From contig CAZHTS010000003.1 in NCBI GenBank assembly GCA_964535315.1, positions 1 to 64,000 on the forward strand: a stretch of DNA of 64,000 bases, read 5' to 3'. Shown here one piece after another: positions 61 through 47,838 of the stretch. A model generated the notes under the pieces. It was not told the origin of the DNA. It saw nothing but the letters and a program-made list of their open reading frames with translations, and ran no database searches. The DNA comes from an uncultured Anaerolineaceae bacterium (GTDB lineage: Bacteria; Chloroflexota; Anaerolineae; Anaerolineales; Anaerolineaceae). The translations under genes and the position numbers were made by a program. Within the stretch, counting starts at the first letter, position 1; each line of letters starts with the position of its first letter.

Positions 61-951
61 CTACTCCACCCGCAGCCGGCTGCTGCCCAGTTCGATCACG
101 TCGCCGGGTCGCAGCAGTTGTGCCCCGGCGACACGCCGGCCTTTGACCCACACCCCGCCGGTCGAGCCCAGGTCGCGCACCTGCCAGCCGGCGGTGGTGA
201 GTTCGATCACGGCATGCCGGTGGGATAGCTCCTCATCCACCAGGCACACATCGTTATCGCTGTCGCTGCCGATGGACAGGCTGCCGCGTAAAGGGATGGC
301 GCGCCCATCGTCCAGGTGCAGCGCCCGCGGCGTCTGGACGGTTGAGGCAGGCGGCAAAAATGGTTTAAGCCACCCGCTCACCCCTGCACCGGTTTCCCCA
401 TTGAGAAGCGCCCCGCCGGAGCGCTTCTCGCCCTGCTCTTCGGCGTTCAGCGCGCCGCCGCTTTGAAGACGCAATTTCAGGCGTTGCTCCAGATGCTGGC
501 CCCCGGCGACAAGGATAGCCACCAGTTCCGGGCCGCCCGGTTCCAGGGCGGCATCCGCGGCCGGTGCAAATACCGTTACCGGGATCCATAACGCCCCACG
601 AACAACGTACGGGCCTTGCTGCCGGGTACGCCGGTAGCATAGCCTGACCCACTCGCGGTTCGGGCCCTCAACCCGCAGACTGATCTTCGCCGCCAGAGCA
701 TCCAGCCTGTCCGCAGCTACAAACGGCGGCTGGGCGCTCACGCTGGCGCAGGCAAACACCTCTTTGTCGCCGGGCCGCAGACCGGGATCAGCGGCGTCCG
801 CCCATTTCAAGTGCAGCGCATAAACCCGTCCCCCGGCTTCTCCATGCTTCGCACCCTGGATACGCCAGAAAACCAGCACACCGACCACCACGAGAAGCGC
901 AATCAGCGCCAACACAAGCCCGCCTGCAGCGGATATTCCCTCCCCGTTCAC
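61..951 (-). CDS. FHA domain-containing membrane protein
   Basis: 296-aa ORF with an N-terminal hydrophobic helix (LVLALIALLVVVGVLVFW) and a C-terminal FHA-like region (GSDSDNDVCLVDEELSHRHAVIELTTAGWQVRDLGSTGGVWVKGRRV...GDVIELGSSRLRV). It is transcribed divergently from the HK-caspase cassette. Confidence 0.7.
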   Translation of the reverse strand: MNGEGISAAGGLVLALIALLVVVGVLVFWRIQGAKHGEAGGRVYALHLKWADAADPGLRPGDKEVFACASVSAQPPFVAADRLDALAAKISLRVEGPNREWVRLCYRRTRQQGPYVVRGALWIPVTVFAPAADAALEPGGPELVAILVAGGQHLEQRLKLRLQSGGALNAEEQGEKRSGGALLNGETGAGVSGWLKPFLPPASTVQTPRALHLDDGRAIPLRGSLSIGSDSDNDVCLVDEELSHRHAVIELTTAGWQVRDLGSTGGVWVKGRRVAGAQLLRPGDVIELGSSRLRVE

Positions 952-1283
952 ATGCCCCCCAACACTTCCAACCCAGGTTTATTCCGCTGCGCCCACATCG
1001 CTTCCTCTCAACAAGAACAACTTTTGATTAAGCTTCACTGCACCGATGCGTATGCCGTTCCCCACATATAACAACCAACGAACACGCCTATTATAACCCG
1101 CTTTTGCGCAGATCAGAACCAACCGCCGCCTTCAGGCGGGGTAATGCACACTTTTCCAAAGCGCCGATAGTTTAATATTGTCAAAATTGGAAAAGTGGAG
1201 CACAATCAAGAAACAAACATGAGTCATAGCCAAAACAAAAGGGCAGCACAATCGATTTATCTCCTTATGAAGGGGCGTTTCGG

Positions 1284-3263
1284 ATGCCAGATGAAAAAAA
1301 GATTCGATTGCTGATCGTGGATGACATCGCTGAGACGCGCCACAATGTTCGCACACTGTGCAACTATGCCGCCGGTTATATTGAAGTAATTGGGGAAGCT
1401 CGTACTGGGCGAGAAGCCATAAATAAAGCTTTCGAGACAGAACCCGACGTTATCTTGATGGATATCAACATGCCCGATATGGATGGCCTTACCGCCACCC
1501 AGGTCATCCGTAAACGGCTTAAACATACAGGGGTCGTGGTTTTATCGGTACAATCTGACCCGGATTACATGCGCCGCGCCATGCTGGCCGGGGTCCAGGA
1601 TTTTCTGACAAAACCCCCGATGTACGACGAACTGCTGGATGCCATTCGGCGGGCTAAAGCCATCGTGGAAAGCCAGGCAAGCGCCCTTCAACAGGCCATC
1701 GTCTCAAACAATCAGACCCAAAATGACGAACATCTACATCTAAAAAAACAAGAACTTGAAATCACAATATTTGACCTCACGGCCCGGTTGGAGCTATATC
1801 AACAGAGCCCAATAACCGCCAGCCTGGTCAATGAAATCGAACTGCTCATTTCAGGGTTGGCCCACGATTTGAGAAGCCCCATCAACATTATGCTAGGGAT
1901 TCTTACCACCCTGCCCACAAAAAATGAGAGGAACCAAAAGGACGTGGAGCGCATTTTGCGCCGCTGTTTATATTGCAAATGGATTGCAGATAATTTCTTG
2001 GGGATCAGTATGAGTGAGAAAATGGTGCTTCGCCAGGTCCCCATGCATCAGGCGTTGGATGCAGCCGCCCTCCTTCTGGAAAACCAACTATCCACTTCTA
2101 TCAAAATAGAGAATCAGATCCCCAAAGATGTATCCGTCTACGCAGACGCCAACTTGATTAATATTGTTTTTCTCAATCTACTCACCAATGCTGTCGAAAG
2201 CATGCCTGGCGGCGGGATTATACGCGTAGATACCCTGCAAGAGAAAAACAACATGCTAATTACGATAGAAGATGATGGGGAAATGATCCCGCTGCAACAC
2301 AGAATAAACTTATTCTCGCTTGGTTTTACAACCAAAAAAGCGCACAGTGGAACCGGGTTGTATGTTGCCAGGCGTCTTATGCAACAGCAAGGTGGGGATT
2401 TGATTTACACCCAGTATTCTGAGAAAAAAGTTTTCGGCCTGCTTTTCCCTCTCCAGCCGCCTCCGCCCAAACCAATCGCGGCCCACACCATAGCCGACTT
2501 AGAAGCCTGGAGCATGGCCCTTCGCCAGCGGTTAGAAGAAGCAGCAAAATATGTGCTCACAGAAGAAGAACACCGGGCAATGATCGACGATTTTAAACGT
2601 CTTTCGACCACATTTTCTCAAAATTTGAGCCATGAATTATCTGCTATTGAAGCCCTGACAAAACAAATCACGCTGCGGCTTGCCATTGACGAGAATCAGC
2701 TCACCACGGCCCTCATGAAAGTAAACAAAAATTGTGCTTATTGCCGTCTACTCACCAATAATATTCTGGAAATAGGCGAAGAATCATCTCCCAGGTATTC
2801 AAAAATTTCATTGATCGACGTGGCCGAAACCGTCCTTTCCCTCATTGATCGAAAAATGCCGGAAAATCTATACCGTGTGGAATGGGATGTCGACCCTACA
2901 CTTACGGAAGTCGAAGCTGACGAAGTACAATTGGATCAGGTTTTTATGAATCTGATCCGGAACAGTCTGGATGCCATGCCGCATGGAGGAACCTTAGGTA
3001 TTCAGATCAGCCAGGATCACGAAGAAGCTGTTGTAAAAATATCCGATACGGGAATAGGGATTTCGCCCGATCATCTTCCCCGGCTTTTTCAGCTTGGTTT
3101 TACCACGAAGCCCAAAGGATATGGCATTGGGTTGTATAGTATTCGAAACATCCTGCAAAAACACGGCGGCCAGATACAGGTATTGAGCAAACCAGGGCAA
3201 GGGACAACGTTTGTTTTTCGCCTCCCTATCGTCCAAAAAAAGGTCGAGGTCAAAAATGAATGA
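1284..3263 (+). CDS. Hybrid response-regulator/histidine kinase with an N-terminal receiver (REC) domain and two tandem HisKA-HATPase kinase cores
   Basis: REC signature (LLIVDDIAETR...DVILMDINMPDMDG). Kinase core 1: H-box LAHDLRSPIN, N-box NLLTNAVESMPGGG, G-box GTGLYVARRL. Pro-rich linker (QPPPPKP). Kinase core 2: H-box-like LSHELSAIE, N-box NLIRNSLDAMPHGG, G-boxes DTGIGISPD and GYGIGLYS. RBS AAGGGG lies upstream of the ATG. GC content is visibly lower than in flanking genes. Confidence 0.85.
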   Translation: MPDEKKIRLLIVDDIAETRHNVRTLCNYAAGYIEVIGEARTGREAINKAFETEPDVILMDINMPDMDGLTATQVIRKRLKHTGVVVLSVQSDPDYMRRAMLAGVQDFLTKPPMYDELLDAIRRAKAIVESQASALQQAIVSNNQTQNDEHLHLKKQELEITIFDLTARLELYQQSPITASLVNEIELLISGLAHDLRSPINIMLGILTTLPTKNERNQKDVERILRRCLYCKWIADNFLGISMSEKMVLRQVPMHQALDAAALLLENQLSTSIKIENQIPKDVSVYADANLINIVFLNLLTNAVESMPGGGIIRVDTLQEKNNMLITIEDDGEMIPLQHRINLFSLGFTTKKAHSGTGLYVARRLMQQQGGDLIYTQYSEKKVFGLLFPLQPPPPKPIAAHTIADLEAWSMALRQRLEEAAKYVLTEEEHRAMIDDFKRLSTTFSQNLSHELSAIEALTKQITLRLAIDENQLTTALMKVNKNCAYCRLLTNNILEIGEESSPRYSKISLIDVAETVLSLIDRKMPENLYRVEWDVDPTLTEVEADEVQLDQVFMNLIRNSLDAMPHGGTLGIQISQDHEEAVVKISDTGIGISPDHLPRLFQLGFTTKPKGYGIGLYSIRNILQKHGGQIQVLSKPGQGTTFVFRLPIVQKKVEVKNE

Positions 3264-5499
3264 CGCTATTCGTATCCTGATCGTTGAAGATGACTCGGAT
3301 TGGCTGGACATTTATAGTGAATACTTGAGAGACGAAAAATACGAAATTGATACCGCCCGAACCATTCAACAGGCTTTTGAACGCTTAGACAGAGCAATCT
3401 ACGATGTGGTCATTACCGATTTAAAGATGATCGGGTTTGATTACGACTTTGGCGGCTTCAGCGTGCTTAAAAGAGTTCGCGAAATAAGTTCCTGCACGCA
3501 AGTCATCGTCATTACGGCCTATGGTACACAAGAAATCGCATTTCGGGCTACTCAGCAAGGAGCCTTTGATATCGTGTACAAACCCCCCGACCCTGACCGC
3601 CTGCGGGTAAGTGTAAGAGGCGCGATACAGGCCAGTCAGATGCTTGCGACTCGTCGCGGTGATACAGCGCGCCTGTCTCGCCATGCCAGAGTGCCTGCTC
3701 AAAATGCAGCCGAAAACACCCCAGGACTGGGGCTCTTTGGCATCACCGGTAACAGCCGGCAGATGCAAACCACTTTTGAAAAAATCAGCTACGCCGTTCA
3801 TACCGACGCCCCTGTTTTTTTATACGGAGAAACAGGCACCGGGAAGAACCTGATTGCAAAAGCCATCCACCATAATTCCAAACGACAATCTCGCCCTTTC
3901 TCTTCTGTGGCGTTTGCTGATCTTGTGGAGCATTGGAATGCCATTCAGCGCAACCTGTTGCGGATAAAAGGCGGCACCTTCTTCCTGGATTCTTTACAGA
4001 AACCAGGCCCAGGAGCAAGCGCCATCCTGGAAGACCTTTTTACACTTTTGCCCAACGTAGATGTACGCCTGATTTCCACGGTCACTACAGAAGAAAACAC
4101 GCTGGAAAAAATCCGCATCCAATTCGGTTTCGATGCCAATCTGTTTGAGAGGCTTTCACAAACCCCAATTTACATCCCCCCTTTGCGGCTTCGAAAAGAC
4201 GGCGACGACATACCCGCCTTGATCGGCTTTTTTATCCGCACGATCACGGCTGAGCGCTCATCCGAACCACAAATAACCTTTTCAAAAGAGGCGTTAAAAA
4301 AGCTGGTTGATTATGATTATCGTTTGGGAAATGTCAGGGAACTCTATGACATCATTCACAAAGCCGTGAACCTGCTGGGGGCCGAGGGGGAAATTACGCC
4401 TGACCAGCTACCCGCTACGCTGCACCAACGAGAAATGATTGAAGTAAAAGCTGGCCCGGCTCCGGCATCCATTTATACCTTAACCGTTGGCATCGACCAG
4501 TATTTCTTCTTAAACAGGCTGCGTAAGGCTGCTCAGGACGCACAAGACTTTCACGATTTATTGTTGCAAAGCCGGGTGGACAGGCAAAATGCGCTGATGT
4601 TGTTAGATGATCAGGCGACAAAGACGAACATCCTGAATGCTTTATCACAGCTTGCCAGATCGGTAACAGAAAACGATAAGGTTATCATTTTCTTTTCGGG
4701 ACATGGTGTGCAATTACAGGACCTCACCAAAGAAGAATATCTATGCCCGGTTGACACGAATTTTGCCGATCTGGAGAACACACTTATCTCCAGTAAAGAA
4801 TTGACCCGGGCATTTAATGCCATCCACGCCGGCCAGTTCATATGTATTTTTGACGCCTGCCATGCAGGCGGCGTAGGCGAAATCAAACACGCAGGCCTGG
4901 CCATTAAGGATGGGGTCTCCGAGAATTCTTACACACTGTTATCACAGGGCAAGGGTAGAGTGATCCTCGCCTCCAGTTTACCCGACGAGGTTTCCTGGGA
5001 AATCGACACAATGCGCAATGGGTTGTTTACCAATTTTCTGCTCGAAGGATTGAGAGGGAAGGCCGCCCGACAGAATGGCGAGGTGTGGTTGAGCGCTCTG
5101 TTCGGATATGTATCCGAACAAATCCCCAGGCATAGACCACAGCACCCCTATCTCAAATCCGAGACTCAGGACATCGTCATCCTGACAGGCGCCACGCCAA
5201 AAGATACGCGTCACATCCTACAACCTGATCGCGACAATCTTTCTTACAATCTGGCGGCGGTGCGAAATTTGCTCAACAGGGTCTTCAGCGACGAAGGATT
5301 AATTCACTTCTGCCACGACCATTTCCCAATCGTATACGATGATCTGGGCTCAGGAATGAGTAAAGCGACGAAAATTGAATATTTGTTAGACTATTGCGAA
5401 CGCACAATCGAAATCGAAAAGATGTTAAAACTGGTACAGAAGATGAACCCACAACAATATTCGTTTTTTGAAGATCAGCTCCGCAGCCCCACCCCCTGA
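3256..5499 (+). CDS. Receiver (REC) domain - NtrC-type AAA+ (sigma54-interaction-like, GAFTGA-less) - caspase/C14 peptidase - C-terminal EAD-like helical domain fusion protein
   Basis: The start is taken at the ATG at 3256 (MNDAIRILIVEDD; RBS AAGGTCGAGG upstream; ATGAATGA overlaps the stop of the upstream HK), not the ORF-track 3211. REC: phospho-acceptor D in VVITDLKM. AAA+: Walker A LYGETGTGKNLIAKAIHHNS, Walker B GGTFFLDSL, arginine-finger region PPLRLRKDGDDI, GNVRELYDIIHKA; no GAFTGA motif and no C-terminal HTH. Caspase: YTLTVGIDQY...VIIFFSGHGVQ (His) ... ICIFDACHAGG (Cys). C-terminal LLNRVFSDEGLIHFCHDHF...KIEYLLDYCERTIEIEKMLKLVQKMNP resembles the EAD/death-like helical modules of conflict systems. 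Confidence 0.85.
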   Translation: MNDAIRILIVEDDSDWLDIYSEYLRDEKYEIDTARTIQQAFERLDRAIYDVVITDLKMIGFDYDFGGFSVLKRVREISSCTQVIVITAYGTQEIAFRATQQGAFDIVYKPPDPDRLRVSVRGAIQASQMLATRRGDTARLSRHARVPAQNAAENTPGLGLFGITGNSRQMQTTFEKISYAVHTDAPVFLYGETGTGKNLIAKAIHHNSKRQSRPFSSVAFADLVEHWNAIQRNLLRIKGGTFFLDSLQKPGPGASAILEDLFTLLPNVDVRLISTVTTEENTLEKIRIQFGFDANLFERLSQTPIYIPPLRLRKDGDDIPALIGFFIRTITAERSSEPQITFSKEALKKLVDYDYRLGNVRELYDIIHKAVNLLGAEGEITPDQLPATLHQREMIEVKAGPAPASIYTLTVGIDQYFFLNRLRKAAQDAQDFHDLLLQSRVDRQNALMLLDDQATKTNILNALSQLARSVTENDKVIIFFSGHGVQLQDLTKEEYLCPVDTNFADLENTLISSKELTRAFNAIHAGQFICIFDACHAGGVGEIKHAGLAIKDGVSENSYTLLSQGKGRVILASSLPDEVSWEIDTMRNGLFTNFLLEGLRGKAARQNGEVWLSALFGYVSEQIPRHRPQHPYLKSETQDIVILTGATPKDTRHILQPDRDNLSYNLAAVRNLLNRVFSDEGLIHFCHDHFPIVYDDLGSGMSKATKIEYLLDYCERTIEIEKMLKLVQKMNPQQYSFFEDQLRSPTP

Positions 5500-5705
5500 A
5501 ACCAGTCCCGTTTTCTTTGGTCCCTGCCAGTAACGCGTCTCGCGCGATAGCATACAAGCGCCCCAACCTGCGCTAAATTCTGTCACATCCGTCTACCGGT
5601 GGAACGTCGGCTTTGGTTTCGTCAAATTTCCATCTACGCGCTTTTGTACCCTGGCGTCTTTGCGTTAAGCCTTGAACCAACAGCGCCCATCCTGCCGCCG
5701 GCCCA

Positions 5706-5763: not shown

Positions 5764-6294
5764 TTACCAGCCGTTCCAGTGAACCTTCTCCGGCTTCCAC
5801 TTATCTTTGGCCGGTTCCGCCCCTGCCGGACGGCCAAGGGGGATGACGCTGAGCGGAACGATCGAGTCGGGCAAATTCAAAATAGCCCGAACAGTTCCCA
5901 CCCGCCCGGCGTCGGGCAGGACGGCCGTCCACACCGCACCCCACCCCAACGCTTCGGCTGCCAGCAAAATGTTTTCGGTGGCGGCCGAGCAATCCATCAC
6001 CCACAACAAGCCATTGCCATCGTCAGGCATCTGGCGGCCGGTGTCGCCGCACACCACAATGGCAGCCGGGGCATGCAGCAGCATCTTGGCGTATGGCAAT
6101 TCGCTTCCCAGGCGCTGTAACACCTCGGGCTGGTTGACAACCACAAAGGCCCAGGGTTGCAGATTGACCGCCGACGGCGCAGCCATCCCGGCGCGTACGA
6201 TGCGTTCCAGGTCGGCGTCGGGGACCGGTTCGGCGGTGTACTTGCGGACGCTCTTACGGTTCATGATCAGTGACAAATCGTTCATGTTTCTCAT
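5764..6294 (-). CDS. Nitroreductase family protein (NAD(P)H-flavin oxidoreductase-like)
   Basis: MNDLSLIMNRKSVRKYT...PSAVNLQPWAFVVV is the typical nitroreductase N-terminus. The start is probably at MRNMND (RBS AAGGATGAG) rather than the ORF-track 6333. Confidence 0.8.
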   Translation of the reverse strand: MRNMNDLSLIMNRKSVRKYTAEPVPDADLERIVRAGMAAPSAVNLQPWAFVVVNQPEVLQRLGSELPYAKMLLHAPAAIVVCGDTGRQMPDDGNGLLWVMDCSAATENILLAAEALGWGAVWTAVLPDAGRVGTVRAILNLPDSIVPLSVIPLGRPAGAEPAKDKWKPEKVHWNGW

Positions 6295-6351
6295 CCTTTG
6301 CTGCAAAATAGATTTTGTTGTTTGTACACACAAGCTTGCAGTTAAAAAAAT

Positions 6352-6786
6352 TCAACCCTCTGCGATGATCTGATTGGCGCGATCGATCTCGGCCGTCAGG
6401 TGATCGGCGAAATCCCGCCCCAACACGGCGACAAAACGTTCGTGCAACGCCGCCCACGCCTGGCGCAAGAGCGGCTGCAATTCCAGGCCCTTTTGCGTCG
6501 GGTACACTTTAGATACCTTCCCCACCAGTTCGCGCCGCAGCAATTGCCGCTCAACCAGCTTGTCGATAAAACGCGTGACGGTTGAAGGCGCCAGATTCAT
6601 ACACGTCGCGATCTCATTCTGATTGATGCCGGGCGTTTCGTTAACAAGCATCTGGACAAAAGCATAAGAAGGAGCCAGCCCGGTGACCATAAAGGCTTCA
6701 TCCGCCATCTTGCTGACCGAACGAGCCAGCGAATTGGCGGTGAAATACAGACAGGCATTAAGGTGAGAATCACATTGGGGTGCCAT
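6352..6786 (-). CDS. MarR family transcriptional regulator
   Basis: Winged-HTH signature (...INQNEIATCMNLAPSTVTRFIDKLVERQLLRRE...). Start chosen at MAPQCD with RBS AAGGAAGG; the ORF-track N-extension lacks an RBS. Confidence 0.75.
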   Translation of the reverse strand: MAPQCDSHLNACLYFTANSLARSVSKMADEAFMVTGLAPSYAFVQMLVNETPGINQNEIATCMNLAPSTVTRFIDKLVERQLLRRELVGKVSKVYPTQKGLELQPLLRQAWAALHERFVAVLGRDFADHLTAEIDRANQIIAEG

Positions 6787-6978
6787 TGCGCCTTCCTTAC
6801 AATTGTTTGCACATACAATTATAAGCCAGACAGGATTGTTGTCAAGAGTTTCTGCCTCCACCACTCTCTTCTTAAGCGTTAGGAAGGGTTTAAAAAAGGT
6901 GTCAATAGAGATTGACAATTCACACGATCCGGGTATAGACTTAGTGCGGTTGTTTTTTATTCACAGAATAGGAGAACC

Positions 6979-8814
6979 ATGAACACCACCATTTTTGTAG
7001 CGGTTATCGTGATCGGCCTGTTGATTCTGACGCTGGTCCTGATACCCGGTTTGCTCGGCCTGGTTATCATCAGCGAACGCCAGGTCGGCGTCGTCGTCAA
7101 GAAATTCTCAACCGGCAAGCCCCTTGCCCCAGGACGCCTGGTGGCGTTGGACGGCGAAGCCGGTTACCAGGCCGATACCCTCACCCCGGGCTGGCACTTT
7201 TTCATGTGGCCGTGGCAGTACGTCGTCCACAAGGTGCCCGTTATCGTCATCCCGCAGGGCGAGATTGGCCTGATCGTGGCCGCCGACGGCGACCCCATCC
7301 CGGCCGAACGCATCCTCGGCCGGGCGGTCGAGTGTGACAACTTCCAGGACGCCCGCAAGTTCTTGCTCCACCACGGCGAAAAAGGCCGCCAGATGAGCAT
7401 CCTCACCGCCGGCACCTATCGTATCAATACCGCATTGTTTAACGTCATCATGACTGCCAATGCCAACGCTCAGGGGATGTCGCCCGAACAGCTCAAAGTC
7501 TATCGCGTCGAGCCCGACCGGGTCGGCATCGTCACCCTCATGGACGGCGCCCCGATCGACACCGGCGAAATCGCCGGCCCGATCATCGAAGGCCACGACA
7601 ATTTCCAGAAAGGCCAGCTCTTCCTGGATCACGGCGGGCGGCGCGGTTTGCAGGAACAAATCCTGCTCTCCGGCTCGTGGAACCTCAACCCCTGGTTCGT
7701 CCAGGTCGAGCAGGTACCCATGACCGAAATCCCCATCGGTTACGTCGGTGTGGTCATCTCCTACGTCGGGAAAGCGCACGAAGACGTCAGCGGCGTGGAT
7801 TTCAAACACGGCGATCTGGTCAAAGAAGGCCATAAGGGTGTGTGGGTCACCCCGCTCTACCCCGGCAAGCACCCGATCAACACCCGCATCATGGAGGTCG
7901 AACTGATCCCGACCACCAACATCGTGCTCAACTGGGCCAACCGCACCGAATCGCACCAGTACGACGCCAAGCTCTCCTCCATCACCGTGCGCTCCAAAGA
8001 CGGTTTTGCCTTCAACCTGGACGTGGCCCAGATCATCCACGTCGGCGCCCTGGACGCCCCCAAGGTCATCTCGCGCGTCGGCTCGATGCAAAACCTGGTC
8101 GACCACGTCCTGCAACCCATCGTCGGCAACTACTTCCGCAACGCCGCCCAGACCAACACCGTGTTGGACTTCCTCAGCGCCCGCAGCGAGCGCCAGGCCG
8201 AAGCCGCCGAACACATCCGCCGGGCGCTCAATGCCTACGACGTACAGGCCATCGACACCCTCATCGGCGACATCAACCCGCCCGAAGACCTGATGCAGAC
8301 CCTCACCGACCGCAAGATCGCCGAGGAACAGCGCAAGACCTTCGAGACCCAGGAAGCCGCCCAAAAGCAGCGCCAGCAGTTGGTGCGTGAAACGGCCAAC
8401 GCCGACATCCAGGGCGAAATGGTGCGCTCTGAACAGGGCGTGCGCATCGCCGAACTTCAGGCCAACGCCCAGATCAAACAGGCCACCGGTGAAGCCGAGT
8501 CCATGCGTCTGCGCGCCTCGGCCGACTCGGACTCGATCCGCCTGCGCGCCACCGGCGAGTCCGAAGCCATCCGCATGACGGGTGAGGCTCGCGCCGGCGC
8601 CTACCAGGCCGGTGTGAAAGCGGTGGGCTCCGAAAACTACACCGCCATCCAGCTCATCCAGGCCATCGGGGAACGCAACGTGCGTATCATCCCCGAGATC
8701 CTCGTCAACGGCGCCGGCGCCAACGCCGGTCTGGCCGACGGATTGATCGCCCTCATCTTGCGCAACCAGATGCTGGACAAGAACCCGCCCACCACGGACA
8801 AACCACAGGCATAA
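6979..8814 (+). CDS. SPFH/band-7 family protein, flotillin-like (YqiK-type) with a long C-terminal coiled coil
   Basis: N-terminal TM helix, SPFH core, then an extended E/A/Q/R-rich coiled coil (EEQRKTFETQEAAQKQRQQLVRETANADIQGEM...) typical of bacterial flotillins. RBS AGGAGA lies upstream of the ATG. Confidence 0.85.
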   Translation: MNTTIFVAVIVIGLLILTLVLIPGLLGLVIISERQVGVVVKKFSTGKPLAPGRLVALDGEAGYQADTLTPGWHFFMWPWQYVVHKVPVIVIPQGEIGLIVAADGDPIPAERILGRAVECDNFQDARKFLLHHGEKGRQMSILTAGTYRINTALFNVIMTANANAQGMSPEQLKVYRVEPDRVGIVTLMDGAPIDTGEIAGPIIEGHDNFQKGQLFLDHGGRRGLQEQILLSGSWNLNPWFVQVEQVPMTEIPIGYVGVVISYVGKAHEDVSGVDFKHGDLVKEGHKGVWVTPLYPGKHPINTRIMEVELIPTTNIVLNWANRTESHQYDAKLSSITVRSKDGFAFNLDVAQIIHVGALDAPKVISRVGSMQNLVDHVLQPIVGNYFRNAAQTNTVLDFLSARSERQAEAAEHIRRALNAYDVQAIDTLIGDINPPEDLMQTLTDRKIAEEQRKTFETQEAAQKQRQQLVRETANADIQGEMVRSEQGVRIAELQANAQIKQATGEAESMRLRASADSDSIRLRATGESEAIRMTGEARAGAYQAGVKAVGSENYTAIQLIQAIGERNVRIIPEILVNGAGANAGLADGLIALILRNQMLDKNPPTTDKPQA

Positions 8815-9122: not shown

Positions 9123-12100
9123 ATGACTCACAAATGGATATCCGGCCTGTTGATGGCTGCTCTGCAACTTCAGCCCTTCCTGTCGCAACCTTCAACCGCC
9201 AACCCGGCAAACGCGTCCCCAATGCACGCCAGCCTGCCTGCTGCCAGTGCAGATTGGACATTCAATATTAACAATCAGGGCGTAGGACGCAACATTATAA
9301 CCGCCGATATAAATGGCGACGGCTTCTCGGATGCGATTGTAGGCGCGAATGAGTACAGCAACTATCGCGGGGCGGTTTACGGATTCTACGGCTCGGCAAA
9401 CGGGCTGAACGCCACCCCTGACTGGTCGCTAGAGGGCGAAAATTCGTACGACTCCTTTGGGGCAGCCCTGGCCAACGCCGGCGATGTCAACGGCGACGGT
9501 TATGCCGACCTGCTCGTCGGCGCCGGCAACTACCCCGGCGGCACGACCTACACCGGCAAGGTCTATCTGTATTACGGTTCTGCCAGCGGACCGGAGCATT
9601 CCCCCGCCTGGGAAAAAACAGGGGAAGATGAAGGCTCGCGCCTGGGCTCTGCGCTGAGCGGCGTCGGCGACCTTAACGCCGATGGTTTTGGCGATGTGAT
9701 CATCGGCGCACCGGGATACGGTGGCTCATTATGGCATGGCCGCGCCTATACCTACCTCGGTTCCGCAGATGGCCTGCCGGCCAACGCCAGCCAGGTGTTG
9801 ACCGGCACGGCGCAAAACGAAATGGTCGGCAATATCGTCGCCCGCGCCGGAGACGTCAACGCCGACGGATTTGCCGACGTCGTCCTCTCCACCAGCAGCC
9901 AGGCGTATACCCGCAAAACACTCCTGTATCAAGGCGGCCCAGACGGGCTGGACGAAACGCCGGCCTGGACAATCACCAATGAACAGGCCGGCTACATGAC
10001 CCCGTCGGGGGCCGGTGATCTCAACGGGGACGGCTATGCCGACATCGCCGTGGTTGCCGAAACCAGCGCACAGGTCTATTTCGGCGCTGCCGGTGGGCCG
10101 CCAACCTCCCCGGGCTGGACGGTTGCCATCGCCAATAATCATTGTCAGATCCCAGGTGGCAATGGCGACGTCAATGGCGATGGCTACGCCGACCTGGCGA
10201 TCAGCGACCGCTGTTATACCCAGGGTGAAACCTACGAAGGCACGGTCGCACTTTACCTGGGTTCATCCGGCGGACTCGCCAGCACTGCCGCCTGGACGGC
10301 CGAGGGCAATCACACCCACATGCAAATGGGCGCCTCTATCAATATCTCAGGAGATATCAACGGCGACGGTTACTCAGATATTTTGACCGGCGCCTACGAC
10401 TTCAATTTTTCAACCACACCGGTTTTGCAAGAAGGCAAAATTTTTGCTTTTCACGGCGCCCCTGATTTTCTCGCCGCTCAGGCTGACTGGAGCGTAGGAG
10501 GCGGGCAGACCTCTGCTCACCTGGGACAGAGCGTCAGTCAGGCTGGTGATGTCAACGGTGACGGTTTTGACGACGTCCTGATCGCTGCTCCCACTTTTGA
10601 CAACGAGCAAGCAGATGAGGGCCGGGTATACCTGTATGCTGGCTCAGCATCAGGGTTGAATGCTGCCCCGGCCTGGAGTGGCGAAGGCAACCAGCCCGGC
10701 GCACAATACGGCAGTGCCGTCAACGCTGCCGGCGATGTAAACGGCGATGGGTTTGCAGACGTTGCCATCGGCGCCCCTTATTTCGATCATGGCCAGGACG
10801 ATGAGGGGGTAGCGGTGGTATACGCTGGCTCGGCGACGGGTTTACAGTCCAGCCCGCTCTGGAGCGTCGAAGGAGATCAGGCCGCTTCTCATCTGGGTAG
10901 TTCACTGGCCTCCGCAGGCGACGTCAACGGGGATGGCTTCGCCGATTTAGTGGTCGGCGCACCCGGCTACAATAATGTCGGACAGGCGCGCCTGTACCTG
11001 GGCGCTGAAACCGGCCTGAGCGCCGTTCCAACCTGGACGGCCAACGGTGTGCAGACCGGTGAAGCGTTTGGTTCTTCAGTCGGCAGCGCTGGCGACGTCA
11101 ACGGCGACGGTTTTGCCGATGTCCTGATCGGCGCCGCGCAGGCCAGCAACGGCGAAAACACCGAGGGCAAAGCGCTGCTCTATCTGGGCTCGGCCGCGGG
11201 CCTCAGCGCCACGCCGGCCTGGACAGTGGAAGGCAATCTGGCTGGCGCTGGCTGCGGTGCGGCGGTCGGCAGCGCCGGAGACGTCAACGGCGACGGCTTT
11301 GCCGATCTACTCATCGGCTGTCCGGGGTATAGCAACGAGCAGACCAACGAGGGACGCGTCTACATTTACTCCGGCTCCAGCGGGGGCCCCGGCAGCCTCT
11401 CATTCAATACCATCGAAATCAACCAGGAAAATGCCTGTTTCGGCATATCGGTATCCACCGCCGGGGATGTCAACGGAGATGGCCTGAGCGAAATTGTGAT
11501 CGGTGCACACCGCTTTAGCAGCGGTCAGACAAACGAGGGGGCCGCGTTCCTTTACCGGGCCCAGGGCAGCCCTGTCTGGGGACTGGCCAGCGACCAGGAT
11601 AACGCCTTCCAGGGTGTGTCGGTCAGCAGTGCGGGCGACGTCAACGGTGATGGATACAATGACGTCATCATTGGCGCCAGCGGTTACACGGCCGGTCAGA
11701 GCGAGGAAGGGCGCGCAACGGTCTATTACGGCAACGCCAGGCCCGGCCTGCCGCTTGCGCTGCGCATGTACCAGCCCGATCGCACCCCCTTGCCCCTCTA
11801 CGGGGTATCCACCAGCCCCGACTCGCTGCAACTATCCTTCCTGGGGCGCAGCCCATGGGGCCGCAGCAAGGCCAGGCTCGAATGGGAAATCAAGCCGGCC
11901 GGCGTTCCCCTGGATGCCGCCGGCCTGGAAAGCACCCCAACCTTCGTGGACACGGGTCTCAACGAATATCTTTTCGAGCCCCTGCTCTCCGGTCTGAGCA
12001 AGAACACGGCATATCACTGGCGTGTTCGCCTGTGGTACGATCCCATTACCACCCCCGGCCAGCCCCACAGCCGCTGGTTCAGCCCCCCTCAAAACGGATG

Positions 12101-12509
12101 GGCGCAGCCCGATTTCCGTACTGCGGACCTACCAATAGAACTCGAATTCGATCAGGCTGCTTATACCTCCACAGAAAGTAGCGGCGCAGTTACTATCCGG
12201 GTGCAGATCAGCAAACCCCCAGAACAAGACGTGCACATTCAATACCACACTGAAGATGGAAGCGCCCTGGCTGGCAACGATTATGCCGCCGCCAGCGGAA
12301 CATTGACTTTCGTTGCCGGTGCGACGGCCAGTCAGGCTATTTCCATTCAAATCATTCGTGATTTTGAGCATGAGACGGACGAAACGTTCACCCTGGTGTT
12401 GAGTGGTATCACCCCGTCAGGCGCCGCCCGTGTCGCCGGCACCAACCCCGTCCAGATCACCCTCACCGACAGCCCACAGACCATCTACCTGCCATTTAAC
12501 CTGCGTTGA
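9123..12509 (+). CDS. Secreted FG-GAP (integrin-alpha-like) repeat protein with a C-terminal Calx-beta domain
   Basis: Signal-peptide-like N-terminus. At least 14 repeats of the ...GDVNGDGFADV/L..G.P... FG-GAP calcium-binding motif. The C-terminus (IELEFDQAAYTSTESSGAVTIRVQIS...YHTEDGSALAGNDYAAASGTLTFVAGATASQAISIQIIRDFEHETDETFTLVLSG) matches Calx-beta. Confidence 0.85.
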   Translation: MTHKWISGLLMAALQLQPFLSQPSTANPANASPMHASLPAASADWTFNINNQGVGRNIITADINGDGFSDAIVGANEYSNYRGAVYGFYGSANGLNATPDWSLEGENSYDSFGAALANAGDVNGDGYADLLVGAGNYPGGTTYTGKVYLYYGSASGPEHSPAWEKTGEDEGSRLGSALSGVGDLNADGFGDVIIGAPGYGGSLWHGRAYTYLGSADGLPANASQVLTGTAQNEMVGNIVARAGDVNADGFADVVLSTSSQAYTRKTLLYQGGPDGLDETPAWTITNEQAGYMTPSGAGDLNGDGYADIAVVAETSAQVYFGAAGGPPTSPGWTVAIANNHCQIPGGNGDVNGDGYADLAISDRCYTQGETYEGTVALYLGSSGGLASTAAWTAEGNHTHMQMGASINISGDINGDGYSDILTGAYDFNFSTTPVLQEGKIFAFHGAPDFLAAQADWSVGGGQTSAHLGQSVSQAGDVNGDGFDDVLIAAPTFDNEQADEGRVYLYAGSASGLNAAPAWSGEGNQPGAQYGSAVNAAGDVNGDGFADVAIGAPYFDHGQDDEGVAVVYAGSATGLQSSPLWSVEGDQAASHLGSSLASAGDVNGDGFADLVVGAPGYNNVGQARLYLGAETGLSAVPTWTANGVQTGEAFGSSVGSAGDVNGDGFADVLIGAAQASNGENTEGKALLYLGSAAGLSATPAWTVEGNLAGAGCGAAVGSAGDVNGDGFADLLIGCPGYSNEQTNEGRVYIYSGSSGGPGSLSFNTIEINQENACFGISVSTAGDVNGDGLSEIVIGAHRFSSGQTNEGAAFLYRAQGSPVWGLASDQDNAFQGVSVSSAGDVNGDGYNDVIIGASGYTAGQSEEGRATVYYGNARPGLPLALRMYQPDRTPLPLYGVSTSPDSLQLSFLGRSPWGRSKARLEWEIKPAGVPLDAAGLESTPTFVDTGLNEYLFEPLLSGLSKNTAYHWRVRLWYDPITTPGQPHSRWFSPPQNGWAQPDFRTADLPIELEFDQAAYTSTESSGAVTIRVQISKPPEQDVHIQYHTEDGSALAGNDYAAASGTLTFVAGATASQAISIQIIRDFEHETDETFTLVLSGITPSGAARVAGTNPVQITLTDSPQTIYLPFNLR
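9280..11520 (+). repeat. Intragenic tandem DNA repeats (~190-200 bp period) encoding the FG-GAP modules
   Basis: Recurrent near-identical cores such as gacgtcaacggcgacggttttgccgat / gatgtcaacggcgacgg at a regular spacing throughout the gene. Confidence 0.6.
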
Positions 12510-12721
12510 GCGTAACAGCCACCACACAAGCCTAAAAATGGCCGCCGGAAGGTTTCTTTCCCGGCGACCGTCAAACGCCTCCACAACCGGCCGATTTTCC
12601 TTCGTAAACCGGGAACGAACCATCGATCATTTCCGTCTATAAAATAGAACCAGGCTGTTTCTGGTTCCATCCGGCGCCCATTCGGATACAATAAAGATAT
12701 ATGGAGAAGGAGGGTCCAGCC

Positions 12722-15700
12722 ATGAGCAATCAACCTCAACGCACAAACACTCGCTTACCAGTTCTCGCCCTGTTACTGGTATTGTTCATCTGCCTTATTG
12801 TGGCAGGTGGTGCAGCCTATTTCTTGCTACGCAACCGCATGTCGCTGCCATTCTCGCCCACCGGCACGCAGCAGATTCCGGTCAACCTTTTACCTGCCAA
12901 TAATACTGGAGGTGCAGTTGTGACGCAAACCGTCGAAAGTGGCGCTCCGCTTCAGTTGAGCGAAGGCCAGGCCCAGCCTGAAACGGTCCAACGGCTGCCG
13001 GTCGCCACCGGTGAGCCGCTCAGCCAGGCACAGGTCGATCAAATTCTGGCGCGCCTGCCAACCCTGGTCCCGCAGCCCGGCCAGCAGACCGACTTCAAGC
13101 TGGCGCAGCAGCCCATCCCCCCGCCGCGGCCGGGGACAACGGTGCAGGGCGCTTTTCCTCCCCCCACACAGCCCCCACCCCCCGACCCGGCCAGCGCCGG
13201 CCCCTTACAGGTGCTGCGCTTTGCCCCCGAAGGGGAAATCCCCACTGCCCCTTTTATTTCGGTCACCTTCAACCAGCCGATGGTGCCGCTCACGACTCTG
13301 GCAGACCTGTCCGCCCGCGACGTTCCCGTGCGCGTTGAACCGCCCCTGGAAGGCACCTGGCGCTGGATCGGCGTCAAAACGCTGACTTTTGAATACGACT
13401 CGGCGCTGATCGACCGCCTGCCCAAGGCCACCGAATATCACATTTCGGTGCCGGCCGGCACACGCTCGCAGACCGGCGGTGTACTGGCAGAAACGGTCGA
13501 ATGGAAATTTACCACCCCGCCGCCCAGGGTTGTCGCCACCTATCCGCCCGACAGCCCGCAGCCTTTGAAGCCGCTGTTCTTCATTCAATTTGACCAGCGC
13601 ATCGACCCGGCCGCCGTACTGAAAACCATCCAGGTCAACGCCGGCGGGCAGCCCGTCGCCCTTCAACTGGCCGGTGAAGAAGAAACCCAGGTCGACAAGG
13701 GCGTCAGCCGCATGATCAAAAACGCCGCCGCCGGGCGCTGGCTGGCCTTCCGCGCCGTCCAGCCCCTCCCTGCCGATACCGGCATCGCCGTCACCATCGG
13801 GCCCGGCACCCCTTCAGCCGAAGGCCCTCTGCTCACTAAAGAAGCACAGACCTACGGTTTTCGCACCTACGCCCCGCTGCGCATCGAAAGCCACGGCTGC
13901 TCCTGGACGGACGAGAACACCTGCCGGCCACTCTCACCCTTCTATATTCGTTTTAACAACAATATCGATGTCTCCTCTTATGCCGAGAGCATGCTGCACA
14001 TTGCCCCTGAACTGGCCGGCGTCTCGGCCAATATCTACGGCAACACCATCACCATTAAAGGCGCCACCCAGGGGCAGACCACCTACACCGTCGATCTGAG
14101 CGGCAAAATCAAAGACGTTTTTGGGCAGGAATTAGGACAGGATGCCCGCCTGACCTTCCAGGTTGGCAAGGCCGAAGCGGTGCTATTTGGCCCCAAACAG
14201 GGCTTTGTCACCATTGACCCCTTTGCCGGCAAACCGCAGTTCTCGGTCTACACTATTAACTACACGAAGTTAAACGTGCAGATTTACGCCGTACAGCCCA
14301 GCGACTGGCCAGCTTACAAACAATACCTGCGCGATTTCCAGCGCAATGATGTCAAAACGACCCCGCCCGGCCGCCGGGTATTCAATAAAGCCATCAACAT
14401 CGAAGCCGAGAGCGACGCCCTGATCGAAACCGGCATCGATCTGAGCCCCTACATGGACGGCAGTTTCGGGCACTTTGTCGTCATCGTCGAACCGCCTACC
14501 GGCTGGTTCCAGCAAAAAGAGTACTGGCGCACGGTACAATCCTGGGTGCAGATCACGCAGGTTGGCCTGGACGCTTTCGTCGATCACAGCGACATGGTCG
14601 TATGGGCCACCTCCCTTAAAGATGGCGCCCCGTTGAGCGGCATCGACATCGCCGCCGAAACATCCGGCAAACAGGCCGCCACCGGCAGCGACGGTCTCGC
14701 CCGCTTTGCCATCCCCAACAACGCCTCATACCTGGTAGCCAGCAGCGGCGCCGATAAGGCCCTGCTGCCACGCTCCACCGCTTTCTGGAGCGACGAAACC
14801 TGGGCCGCCCGACCGGTGCTCGATACACTGCGCTGGTACGTTTTCGACGACCGCCAGATGTACCGCCCTGGTGAAGAGATCCACATCAAGGGCTGGATGC
14901 GCCGCATCGGCGGCAAACAAAACGGCGACGTTGGCCCATCCACCGGTATTACCGCCGTCAACTATCGCATCACCGAACCGCAGGGCAACGAAATCGGCAC
15001 CGGGCGCGCCGAAGTCAACGCCCTGGGCGGCTTCGACTTTGCCTTCACCCTGCCCGAGGCCGTCAACCTGGGCAACGCCAGCATCTATATCTACGGCGAA
15101 GGCAATCTGGGCAACCTGGAAGGCAACCAGTATTACCACAGCTTCCAGATCCAGGAATTCCGCCGGCCAGAGTTTGAGGTCAAGGCCAGCAACGAGACGC
15201 CCGGCCCGTACTTCGCCGGCGATCATACCAACGCCCTGGTCGAAGCCAGATACTATGCCGGCGGCCCGCTGCCGGGCGCCGAGGTCAGTTGGCAGGTAAC
15301 CACCGCACCGGGCAGCTACACACCGCCCAACTGGTCTGATTTTACCTTTGGCACCTGGCAGCCCTGGTGGTTCTACGGGTGGGGCGATGGCGGATCAAGC
15401 GAAGGCGGCCAGACCGAAACGTTTAACGGACGCACCGACGCTGCCGGTGTGCACCGCCTGCGCCTGGATTTCAACCAGAACCTTGGCCCGCGGCCGCTCA
15501 GCGTGGTGGCGTCGGCCGCCGTCATGGACGTCAACCGCCAGGCCTGGGGCGCCACCACCACCCTGCTGGTCCATCCCGCCAGCCTGTACGTGGGCATGCG
15601 CAGCGAACGCTATTTCGTCGAACGCGGCACACCGCTCGAGATCGACCTGATCGTCACCAACCTGGACGGTAAGCCGGTGATCGACCGCCCGATCAAAGTG

Positions 15701-18700
15701 CGCGCGGCCCGCCTGGACTGGAAATATCACGGCGACCGCTGGGGTGAAGAAGAGGCCGACGTCCAGGAATGCACCGCCGGCTCGAAGAGTGAACCGGTCC
15801 GCTGCACCTTTGAGACCGCCCTCGGCGGCAGTTACCGTATCACCGCCGAGATCAGCGACGAACTGGGGCGCAAGAACCAGAGCCAGTTCATTCGCTGGGT
15901 CAGCGGTGGACAGCGACCGGCGGCGCGCAACGTCGAGCAGGAACAGGTCACGCTCATCCCGGATAAAGAAAGCTATCAGCCCGGTGACGTGGCCAACATC
16001 CTGGTACAGCCGCCCTTCAGCCCGGCCGAGGGTCTGCTGACCGTCAGCCGCAGTGGGCTGCTCTATACCGAGCGCTTCCAGGTTACTGAGGGCGCCGTTA
16101 CCCTCAAGATTCCCATCGCGGCCGGACACATCCCCAACCTGAACATCCAGGTCGATCTGACCGGTTCGGCCAACCGCCTGAACGAGCGCGGCGAAACCGT
16201 TGCCGGGGCACCGCGGCGGCCAGCCTACGCCACGGCCCAACTCACCCTCAACATTCCGCCCACACAGCGCAGGCTCACCCTCAGCGCCAACCTGGCGGCC
16301 GCCGAACTGGAGCCCGGTCAAGAGACCACCCTGGACGTGACCGTTAAGGACGCCGCCGGCCAGCCGGTGAGCGACGCCGAACTGGCCGTAGTGGTGGTGG
16401 ACGAAGCCATCCTGGCGCTGTCCAACTACAACATGGCCGACCCGCTGTTCACCTTCTACACCGCTCGCCCGGCGGAGCTGGAGAGCCTGTATGGGCGTGC
16501 CAGCATCCTCCTGGCCAACCCGCAGGAACTGGCCGAAGAAGCCCGCCAGAAGGCCAACGAGGCCGATGGTATGCTGGCCGGTGCTGCTGCTGTCCCCGCC
16601 CCGGCGATGGAAGCCGCCCCCACCATGGCGGCCATGGCCGACGAAGCCAAAGCCGGCGCTGCCGCTCCTCAGCCAATTCGCATGCGCATGGACTTCAACC
16701 CGCTGGCGACCTTCGCCCCTGCCACCCATACCAACGCCGACGGCACCGCCAGGGTGACGATCAAGCTGCCGGATAACCTGACACGCTATCGGGTCATGGT
16801 GGCGGCGGTTGACGGCGGAAGCGGCCGGCGCTTTGGCATCACCGAAAGCAACCTGGTCGCCCGCCTGCCGTTGATGGTGCGCCCGTCTGCCCCGCGCTTC
16901 CTGAACTTTGGCGACCGCTTCGAACTGCCGGTCGTGCTGCAAAACCAGACCGCCGAACCCCTGACGGTTGACGTGGCCGTGCGCGCCAGCAATCTCACCC
17001 TGACCGGCGCCGCCGGCCAGCGCGTGACCATCCCGGCCCGCGACCGGGTCGAAGTACGCTTCCCGGCCACCACGCAACTGGCCGGCACGGCCCGCTTCCA
17101 GGTCGCCGCCGTTTCTGGCAGCTACGCCGATGCCGCCACGGTCGAACTGCCGGTCTACACCCCGGCCACCACCGAAGCCTTCGCCACCTACGGCGTCATC
17201 GACGAGGGCAACACCGCTCAACCGGTAGCCGCCCTGAATGACATCTTCCCTCAATACGGTGGGCTGGAAATCAGCACCTCTTCCACTGCCCTGCAATCCC
17301 TCACCGACGCGGTGTTGTATCTGGTCGCTTACCCGTTTGAATGCACCGAGCAGTTATCTTCTCGCATCCTGGCCGTGGCCGCCCTGCGCGACGTCCTGAC
17401 CGCCTTCAAGGCCGAAGGGCTGCCTTCGGCCAGCGAGATGGAAGCAGCCGTGCAGCGGGACGTCGAACGACTGCAAGGGCTGCAAAACTCTGACGGCGGC
17501 TTCCCCTATTGGCGCAGAGGACAGGACTCGATCCCCTTCAACACCATCCATGTGGCCCACGCCCTGCAGCGCGCCGAGCTCAAAGGCTTCAAGGTGCCCG
17601 AAGAGATGAAACCCCGCCTGCTGCAATACCTGCGCCAGATCGAAAACTACTATCCCTCCTGGTACAGCCAGCACACCCGCCAGACGCTCAGCGCCTATGC
17701 CCTGTACGTCCGCCACCTGATGGGCGACCGCGATCCCGATAAGGCCATCCAACTGCTCGATGAGGCCGGGTTGGAAAACCTCGATCTGGATGCCGTGGGC
17801 TGGTTGTGGCAGGTGCTGCAAGACGCTCCCAACGCCGGCGCTCGCCTGGAGGCCATCCGTAAACACGTCAACAACCGTGTGGTAGAAACCGCCGGCGCGG
17901 CCAACTTCACCACCTCGTATGATGACCAGTCCTACCTGCTGCTCAACTCCGACCGCCGCACCGACGCCATTCTGCTGGAAGCGTTGATGATCGACGACCC
18001 CAAGAGCGACCTGACGCCCAAGGTGGTCAACGGGCTGCTGGCGCACCGCACCCGCGGCCGCTGGGGCAACACCCAGGAGAACGTCTTCGTTCTGCTGGCG
18101 CTGGATCGTTACTTCAACACCTACGAAGCACGTACCCCCGACTTCGTCGCCCGTATGTGGCTGGGAGACGCCTACGTCGGCGAGCACGCCTTCCGCGGCC
18201 GCACCACCGAACGCTACGAGGTCACCGTCCCCATGTCATACCTGGTCGATCAGACCGCTGCCGGAACGCAGAATCTGATCCTCAGCAAGGATGGCCCCGG
18301 CCGGATGTACTACCGTCTCGGTCTGCGCTATGCTCCCACCGATCTGGAACTGCCCCCGCTGGATATGGGCTTTACCGTCCAACGCGTCTACGAGGCCGTG
18401 GATGACCCCAAAGACGTTTCTCAGGACAGCGACGGTGTCTGGCACATCAAGGCCGGGGCGCGCGTGCGGGTGCGCCTGACGCTGGTCGCCGCCAACCGCC
18501 GCTACCATGTGGCCCTGGTCGACCCGCTGCCCGCCGGGCTGGAGATCGTCAACCCCGCCCTGGCCGTTTCCGGCAGTATTCCCCAGGATCCCAACGCCAG
18601 CGATTATTCCTACGGGTGGTGGTGGTGGCGCAGCTGGTTCGAACACCAGAACCTGCGCGACGAACGCGCCGAAGCCTTCACCTCGTTGCTGTGGGATGGC

Positions 18701-18885: not shown

Positions 18886-18975
18886 TGGCGGAGAGGGTGG
18901 GATTTGAACCCACGGTACCTTGCGGTACACGCGCTCTCCAGGCGCGCGCGTTAGGCCAAACTACGCTACCTCTCC
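18886..18975 (-). tRNA. tRNA-Ser (anticodon GGA)
   Basis: Reverse complement reads GGAGAGG-TA-GCG..CGC-G-CGCGC-CTGGAGA-GCGCG-(long variable arm TGTACCGCAAGGTACCG)-GTGGG-TTCAAAT-CCCAC-CCTCTCC-G-CCA. It forms a cloverleaf with a 7-nt anticodon loop carrying GGA, and the long variable arm is diagnostic of a Ser/Leu class II tRNA. Confidence 0.9.
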
Positions 18976-46834: not shown

Positions 46835-47198
46835 GATCCCGCTGCGCCCAAACGCGTTGGATCTGGCGGATGGCCTGGTTGGTCGCCCGGCGATATGCCG
46901 TCTGCGCCGCCAGTTTCACCACCAAAATCAACGTGCGTTCGCCGGCGGCAAAGGCGCGGCACACCAACCGCTGGCCGTGTTCGTCAAACATCACGATCTC
47001 GTCCATCTCACCCAGGCCGACGTGGGCGCTGGCCTGTTGGGCAACCCGTTGTACCCGCGCCGCAATCGCCGCCGGCGCTTCGGCCTGTTCTCCGCCGGTA
47101 GACGCCGCCAGCGGGAAGCCCGAGGCATCGGTCAACACGACTGCCAGAAAACCATGTTCGACTCCGACCTGTTGTACGATCTCCTGAAGCTGTTTCAT
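46824..47198 (-). CDS. Roadblock/LC7 (MglB-like) domain protein
   Basis: 124 aa; GFLAVVLTDASGFPLAASTGGEQAEAPAAIAARVQRV.... 11-nt overlap with the downstream gene and 4-nt overlap with the upstream GTPase gene. Confidence 0.7.
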   Translation of the reverse strand: MKQLQEIVQQVGVEHGFLAVVLTDASGFPLAASTGGEQAEAPAAIAARVQRVAQQASAHVGLGEMDEIVMFDEHGQRLVCRAFAAGERTLILVVKLAAQTAYRRATNQAIRQIQRVWAQRDRAA

Positions 47199-47821: not shown

Positions 47822-47838
47822 ACACCTCGCCTGGTAGC

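Follow-up and report, generated by a model that had tools for sequence, protein, structure and literature searches.

The sequence analysed here, referred to below as the window, is a stretch of 64,000 nucleotides (nt) from an uncultured Anaerolineaceae bacterium (Chloroflexota; contig CAZHTS010000003.1), and the element in question is the C-terminal tail of a caspase protein encoded near its beginning. A first-pass annotation made from the letters of the sequence had placed this tail at 5218-5496 (+) and described it as a death-like effector-associated domain (EAD). Both its coordinates and its frame were right: the segment translates to the quoted peptide LQPDRDNLSYNLAAVRNLLNRVFSDEGLIHFCHDHFPIVYDDLGSGMSKATKIEYLLDYCERTIEIEKMLKLVQKMNPQQYSFFEDQLRSPTP and corresponds to residues 655-747 when the open reading frame (ORF) is counted from the ATG at 3256. 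This ATG (MNDAIRILIVEDD...) is the likeliest start of the ORF 3211-5499 (+), and an identical 747-amino-acid (aa) gene call with the same start is found on two public metagenomic contigs. The gene and the parts of its product are as follows, where pLDDT is the predicted local distance difference test score of the structural model:

3256..5499, + strand: whole gene for the REC, AAA+, caspase and EAD7 protein, 747 aa plus stop (ORF list and translation)
3274..3615, + strand: receiver (REC) domain, residues 7-120 (Pfam Response_reg, PF00072, E 1.6e-21)
3742..4434, + strand: sigma54-type AAA+ module with lid, residues 163-393 (Sigma54_activ_2 7e-16, Sigma54_activat 4e-15, AAA_lid_14 5e-14)
4480..5160, + strand: caspase (Peptidase_C14), residues 409-635 (PF00656, E 1.2e-22)
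5161..5250, + strand: flexible linker between caspase and EAD7, residues 636-665 (pLDDT <50 at 649-660; no Pfam match)
5251..5481, + strand: EAD7 adaptor domain, residues 666-742, six-helix bundle (Pfam core 669-732, nt 5260-5451)

The tail is a fresh member of the known EAD7 family, and in this respect the result mostly confirms a catalogued adaptor family. The EAD7 profile of Pfam (PF19960, curated cut-off 32 bits) covers residues 669-732 with all of its 62 positions, scoring 40.9 bits (E 1.8e-10); for the tail by itself the score is 44.0 bits (E 1.9e-11), and PF19960 is also present in the public precomputed annotation of the protein. The earlier assignment to the effector-associated domains therefore holds, and can be narrowed to EAD7. 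An exhaustive phmmer search of 1.84e9 representative proteins with the 93-residue tail returned 1686 proteins at E<=1e-3, of which 360 reached E<=1e-10, and EAD7 was recognised by Pfam in all 83 matches that were scanned (those of at least 230 aa). The domains accompanying it in these 83 proteins were TIR_2 (8), caspase (6), nSTAND1 (5), SIR2_2 (5), TCAD9 (4) and CHAT (4), and further PNP, HD-CE and FGE-sulfatase. This set fits the published repertoire of EAD-linked proteins (PMC7159879), which argues that the tail is real and far above chance; chance similarity is ruled out by the PF19960 match and the 1686 phmmer matches. Note that word-indexed searches gave 0 matches for the tail alone and 2 for a 28-sequence EAD7 alignment, which reflects the weakness of such an index on short divergent domains and not rarity of the family.

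EADs have been proposed to couple effectors to cores via homotypic interaction, with EAD7 listed among the effector recruiters and caspase as one effector class of the EAD-linked proteins (Kaur, Burroughs, Iyer and Aravind 2020, PMC7159879). The window domain resembles the EAD7 of that work in being small, all-helical, non-catalytic, terminal and fused to a caspase. It differs from the described systems in its core, a response regulator with REC and sigma54-type AAA+ that is described in neither Kaur paper, and in that no cognate second copy adjoins the gene. Its place at the extreme C-terminus, after the caspase, agrees with the terminal, effector-fused habit of the family: among single-copy relatives, EAD7 is C-terminal in 77, N-terminal in 39, stand-alone in 7 and internal in 7. 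The relatives are concentrated in filamentous Chloroflexota, and some of them carry EAD7 in tandem arrays. Two such proteins, P0121 (2091 aa) and P0122 (488 aa), have 4-5 copies in tandem per polypeptide and may be scaffolds or hubs of EAD7 networks. Additionally, the conserved unit was found to exceed the Pfam model of 62 positions by ~15-20 residues, as judged by a 90-state hidden Markov model (HMM), the alignment consensus and helix 6; the extension (window 5452-5481, residues 733-742) includes an "NPxQY" motif whose Pro is almost invariant and the sixth helix, which is predicted with confidence, and the Pfam boundary of EAD7 seems to be short.

The AlphaFold2 (AF2) model of the tail, computed with a 28-sequence alignment as input, has six helices, a mean pLDDT of 90.3 and a predicted template modelling score (pTM) of 0.80. 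In the full-length model (pLDDT 87, pTM 0.54), which has other low-confidence linkers at residues 141-159 and 391-398, the six EAD7 helices span residues 666-742 (~77 residues). The helical character claimed for the tail was thus borne out, and the alternative of a disordered or non-helical tail is ruled out by the confident six-helix prediction. The predicted bundle has Death-fold topology, and its closest structural matches are Death-fold domains; the best Foldseek match was the CARD of CARD8, with template modelling (TM) scores of 0.60/0.64, a probability of 0.93 and an E-value that was not significant (best E 0.5). At the level of sequence, the Death, CARD and bDLD Pfam models did not match the protein at E<=1, and an hhalign comparison with one bDLD1 sequence was negative (probability 0.3%). 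The death-like label can therefore be retained for the resemblance of the predicted fold but not for any relationship to Death/CARD families or bDLD1 at the level of sequence or profile. Since no such similarity to Death-fold adaptors was found, common ancestry is not demonstrated, and what supports "Death-like" here is the similar fold of a predicted model, not homology. The class used for this comparison comprised CARD, PYD, DD and DED, the Apaf-1/Dark CARD with the caspase-9/Dronc CARD, bDLD1-3 and a bacterial CARD (PDB 9frr); the window protein differs from Death-fold systems in that its NTPase is an NtrC-type AAA+, not STAND. Only bDLD1-3 have been formally placed in the Death-like superfamily (PMC8195603), and the papers defining the EADs gave only structural parallels between helical EADs and Death-like domains (PMC7159879, PMC8195603); a confident predicted structure now puts EAD7 in the Death/CARD fold class.

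The caspase context of the tail was also recognised correctly. EAD7 lies C-terminal to a caspase with an intact dyad, His483 in SGHG (nt 4702-4704) and Cys535 in DACH (nt 4858-4860), and the enzyme is apparently active as judged from these motifs; the same dyad is kept in P0002, P0003 and the stand-alone caspase-EAD7 proteins. At the same time, the view of the protein as an effector looking for a separate core NTPase was not supported: the same polypeptide already holds REC and the sigma54-type AAA+ NTPase, and the protein is thus core and effector in one. REC keeps the acidic pocket E11, D12, D13, the phospho-acceptor D55 (nt 3418-3420), T87 and K109, with D55, T87 and K109 nearly invariant in a 50-sequence alignment. 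In the AAA+ module, Sigma54_activ_2 and Sigma54_activat cover residues 163-310 and AAA_lid_14 covers residues 316-393.

The N-terminal half of the protein is 31-35% identical to the NtrC-family enhancer-binding proteins and shares with them the order of REC, sigma54-type AAA+ and lid; its Walker A motif is also intact (GETGTGK, K197), because of which the module probably still binds ATP. In contrast to these proteins, its Walker B motif is FFLDS, in which Ser246 takes the place of the catalytic Glu, and this Glu is lost in nearly all aligned members of the group (DN, DK or DD in others; one LEEL). The alignment shows a 14-residue deletion across the GAFTGA L1 loop in P0001-P0024, where canonical proteins keep G(A/S)FTGA; the pre-sensor-I insertion is deleted in the window protein and P0001-P0024, and HTH_8 (PF02954), present in most canonical matches, is missing in P0001-P0031. 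Moreover, the protein scores far under every NCBIfam equivalog cut-off (e.g., 137.6 vs 558.6 for NtrC). With the GAFTGA loop, the Walker-B Glu and the DNA-binding HTH_8 all lost, a role as a classical sigma54 enhancer-binding transcription factor is ruled out on the evidence of the motifs, and the protein looks like a phosphorylation-controlled, nucleotide-binding oligomerisation switch carrying a protease. A more distant REC-AAA+ group (P0025-P0031, several of them TIR-ended) keeps the L1 loop with a degenerate GAFTGA (e.g., EAGTIYSA), and its members may represent intermediate stages on the way to losing sigma54 function.

The REC-AAA+ scaffold occurs with several outputs. It is joined to caspase-EAD7 in P0001-P0003 (only three clusters at 90% identity were found), to TIR_2 in P0004-P0012, P0014, P0018 and P0020, to CHAT in P0015 and P0017, to EAD7 alone in P0016, P0019 and P0021-P0024, and to bDLD1 (PF20689, Bacterial Death-like domain 1) in P0013, at residues 421-512. 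Killing enzymes and adaptors that are exchangeable in one slot are a signature of conflict systems. That bDLD1, a recognised Death-like domain, takes the same slot as EAD7 speaks for equivalent roles of the two, and the versions of the scaffold that end in EAD7 alone lack an effector and so need one in trans.

The caspase and its EAD7 appear to have arrived on this scaffold together. Residues 407-744 of the window protein align collinearly with P0229, a caspase-EAD7 protein of 370 aa that stands alone (33% identity, E 4e-49), and two ~940-aa proteins carry the same cassette behind a weak REC, under the Pfam cut-off, and TCAD9/APH-like domains. The window tail is 45-55% identical to the EAD7s on unrelated TIR, SIR2, CHAT and STAND proteins of the same phylum, whereas the sister REC-AAA-EAD7 proteins have an EAD7 of another, shorter subtype that lacks the NPxQY helix and shares 17-32% identity with the window tail. 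This greater closeness to EAD7s of unrelated architectures argues that the whole caspase-EAD7 cassette was grafted onto the scaffold; insertion of a caspase before the scaffold's own EAD7 is unlikely, given the divergence of the sister EAD7 and the match of the whole cassette to stand-alone proteins. That scaffold-EAD7 and caspase-EAD7 also occur as proteins of their own is a hint, of the Rosetta-stone type, that the parts cooperate.

In two related loci the module lies in a defence setting. The ortholog with caspase-EAD7 in L003 (10001-12217) and a TIR paralog in L067 (7001-8632) occupy the same site in a DISARM-like island, with an MmeI-like methyltransferase on one side and a helicase plus MZB (DUF1998) on the other; L003 also has VapBC and PLD genes close by. 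This arrangement looks like in-place effector swapping, or else the module may be an accessory of the DISARM-like island.

In the window, the gene of interest is the second of two, and the pair coincides with a distinct island of base composition:

1284..3263, + strand: partner gene, with REC, HisKA and HATPase, then a second DHp-like region and HATPase, 659 aa (Pfam)
950..5550, no strand: low-GC island corresponding to the two-gene module, GC 0.45-0.51 vs 0.58-0.67 in the flanks (composition profile)

The end of the kinase gene overlaps the start of the caspase gene by 8 nt (3256-3263), and a kinase of the same type lies directly upstream, abutting or overlapping, in all six loci compared (the window, L003, L005, L067, L068 and L069). 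The layout of this kinase is unusual: an N-terminal REC is followed by HisKA with AHDLRSP and a weak HATPase, and then by a DHp-like SHELS and a strong HATPase; Pfam recognised no sensor domain in 1284-3263. The low-GC island of ~4.5 kb has sharp edges and stands amid housekeeping genes, so horizontal acquisition of the two-gene module is likely. The Pfam content of the 29 other large ORFs of the window includes DnaK, SbcC, an alpha-2-macroglobulin, an FG-GAP protein, SPFH/NfeD, glycosyltransferases and several two-component proteins, and no STAND NTPase, TIR or other conflict-system component was detected among them. Promoter and terminator scans performed no better than on shuffled sequence.

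The closest validated analogue of the operon logic, by comparison of architectures, is Detocs (Rousset et al., bioRxiv 10.1101/2023.01.24.525353), in which a histidine kinase likewise serves a receiver protein that has a toxic effector output instead of a DNA-binding domain, effectors are likewise swappable across homologs, and some loci likewise lie in defence islands. Detocs has three genes (DtcA/DtcB/DtcC), which encode a TPR-bearing sensor kinase, a separate receiver that acts as a buffer (DtcB) and a REC-effector protein. In contrast, the window module has two conserved genes only, with neither TPRs nor a REC-only gene; its kinase begins with a REC of its own and has two HATPase modules, an AAA+ module separates REC from the effector, and there are adaptor domains. 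PADLOC returned no match to a Detocs model, and membership in Detocs is ruled out by the missing defining features.

Taken with the domain architecture, these comparisons make it probable, in our judgement, that EAD7 belongs to a phosphorelay-gated, oligomerising death or defence module, in which it would make homotypic contacts and recruit EAD7-tagged proteins. In such a scheme, the co-transcribed kinase would phosphorylate REC at D55, phosphorylation would relieve the inhibition of the AAA+ module, and an ATP-bound AAA+ ring would assemble, with ATP hydrolysis that is probably poor because Walker B is degenerate. The ring would bring the caspase domains together, leading to their activation by proximity, and would at the same time cluster the linker-tethered EAD7 domains for homotypic EAD7-EAD7 contacts. 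These contacts would stabilise the assembly and recruit EAD7-tagged TIR, SIR2, CHAT or STAND proteins encoded elsewhere in the source genome, and the outcome would be cell suicide or defence. Such TIR, SIR2, CHAT and STAND types of EAD7 proteins are common in Chloroflexota.

The genomes of relatives bear on whether such partners exist. A scan of one genome per species with narrow peptide patterns gave 61 EAD7 loci in 49 assemblies, with two or more loci in 11 of the 49 and the best hit 54% identical to the window tail; 46 of the hits were titled as Chloroflexota lineages (Anaerolineae, Thermoflexales, Promineifilaceae, Ardenticatenaceae, Chloroflexaceae). Several of the scanned loci hold two or three EAD7 genes. 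In L069, an EAD7-nSTAND1 gene lies ~10 kb from a REC-AAA-EAD7 gene; in Ca. Leptofilum, an EAD7-TIR gene (L047) lies ~210 kb from REC-AAA-EAD7 (P0024) on the same 2.68-Mb contig; and in L028, two adjacent adaptor-only EAD1-EAD7 genes (976-2554 and 5971-7323) adjoin an EAD7-TPR gene, their products looking like bridges between EAD1 and EAD7 networks. These multi-copy genomes and loci fit the published "EAD principle" (PMC7159879, PMC8195603). A UvrD-helicase-EAD7 gene (L007, 429-2699) with a tail 54% identical to that of the window stands beside another EAD7 ORF on a contig binned as a metagenome-assembled genome (MAG) of a Thorarchaeota archaeon, which is either a binning error or a case of inter-domain transfer.

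A number of observations weigh against the proposed module and its recruitment of partners. The earlier statement that no second copy is visible in the window proved correct: an HMM built from 176 EAD7 segments and run, with filters off, on six-frame segments of at least 30 aa matched only the caspase ORF in these 64 kb (E 6.8e-35; next E 2.1), and no other EAD7 was found within 10 kb on either side of the ortholog in L003 (22-kb context). In the window, the module is surrounded by housekeeping genes and not by a defence island. PADLOC gave single-domain matches only (RtcR/PspF-type AAA, caspase, REC) and no known system, and a search of the PDB sequences with the EAD7 profile (hmmsearch) returned nothing relevant, that is, no solved structure with a related sequence. 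To our knowledge, no interaction of an EAD7 has been demonstrated experimentally. Furthermore, the protein already has an input, an NTPase and an effector, so a partner in trans is not logically required.

In the main rival explanation, which we regard as rather unlikely, EAD7 would pair only with copies of the same protein, nucleating or locking an AAA+/caspase oligomer or filament with no separate partner, by analogy with the CARD of caspase-1 or caspase-9. However, the window EAD7 is of the mainstream subtype shared with proteins of unrelated architectures (45-55% identity), and the multi-copy genomes together with the adaptor-only EAD1-EAD7 proteins argue for networks. A reversed polarity has still less in its favour and is improbable: here the window protein would be a client that docks via EAD7 onto another EAD7-bearing sensor or STAND NTPase, with the phosphorelay as a second safety input. 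EAD7 is indeed frequent on nSTAND1, NACHT and TCAD9 cores, and caspase-EAD7 also exists as a stand-alone effector (P0229) that must be recruited; the window protein, however, has its own NTPase switch and a dedicated kinase in six of six loci, and the window scans detected no such core near the gene. It is very improbable that EAD7 is an evolutionary relic, carried along in the fusion of the cassette to the REC-AAA+ scaffold and now without a role. The cassette fusion is evident and no local partner was seen in the window, but EAD7 is present in all three known orthologs and diverges at the pace of the rest of the protein (tail vs whole protein, 54% vs 58% identity with P0002 and 37% vs 45% with P0003), and the tail keeps the near-invariant residues of the family (R, C, V, L, P) and a confidently predicted fold. 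Finally, the idea that the tail replaces the Fis-type helix-turn-helix of NtrC-family activators in a protein that is a transcription factor is scarcely tenable in view of the deleted GAFTGA loop for sigma54 contact and the degenerate Walker B, the conflict-system partners, not DNA-binding contexts, of 83/83 scanned relatives, and the Death-fold domains as best structural matches.

The remaining neighbourhood of the window contains further two-component genes, at 34377-40278 (-), 43943-44890 (-) and 47195-48999 (-), which encode a REC-HATPase protein, a 1480-aa CHASE4-GAF-HisKA-HATPase-REC hybrid kinase, a REC protein, and, next to a small GTPase of the Arf/MglA-like kind, a REC-HisKA-HATPase protein. 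Each of them is a possible source of input to the REC at the N-terminus of the kinase in the module. Just downstream of the module lie an FG-GAP/Calx-beta gene of 1128 aa (9123-12509, +) and a bacterial alpha-2-macroglobulin gene of 2043 aa (12701-18832, +), and a tRNA gene is located at 18889-18975 (-).

The EAD7 domain and caspase-EAD fusions are already known, and the REC-AAA+ scaffold appears to be undescribed. Full-text literature searches, whose incomplete coverage leaves room for a prior description, found none in which a response regulator with sigma54-type AAA+ is joined to a caspase, TIR, CHAT or EAD module, and the two Kaur et al. papers mention NtrC merely as an analogy (PMC7159879, PMC8195603). 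The scaffold is a variant of the NTPase-centred conflict systems, in which an NtrC-type AAA+ that has lost its transcriptional parts connects an adaptor and a caspase to a two-component phosphorelay. It joins two formerly separate themes, Detocs-like two-component defence and the NTPase-plus-adaptor, "apoptosome-like" conflict systems, and it offers a compact two-gene system in which adaptor function becomes testable. More tentatively, and with more doubt than confidence on our part, filamentous Chloroflexota may have rebuilt NtrC-type regulators, after the loss of their sigma54 contact and DNA binding, into a new class of NTPase-centred death or immunity switch, in which a dedicated phosphorelay would lead to an AAA+ ring, the ring to the display of a killing enzyme (caspase, CHAT or TIR) or a Death-fold adaptor (EAD7 or bDLD1), and the clustering of such adaptors to a CARD-like higher-order assembly recruiting EAD7-tagged effectors encoded throughout the genome. 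If true, bacteria would possess a counterpart of the apoptosome or inflammasome that is gated by phosphorylation.

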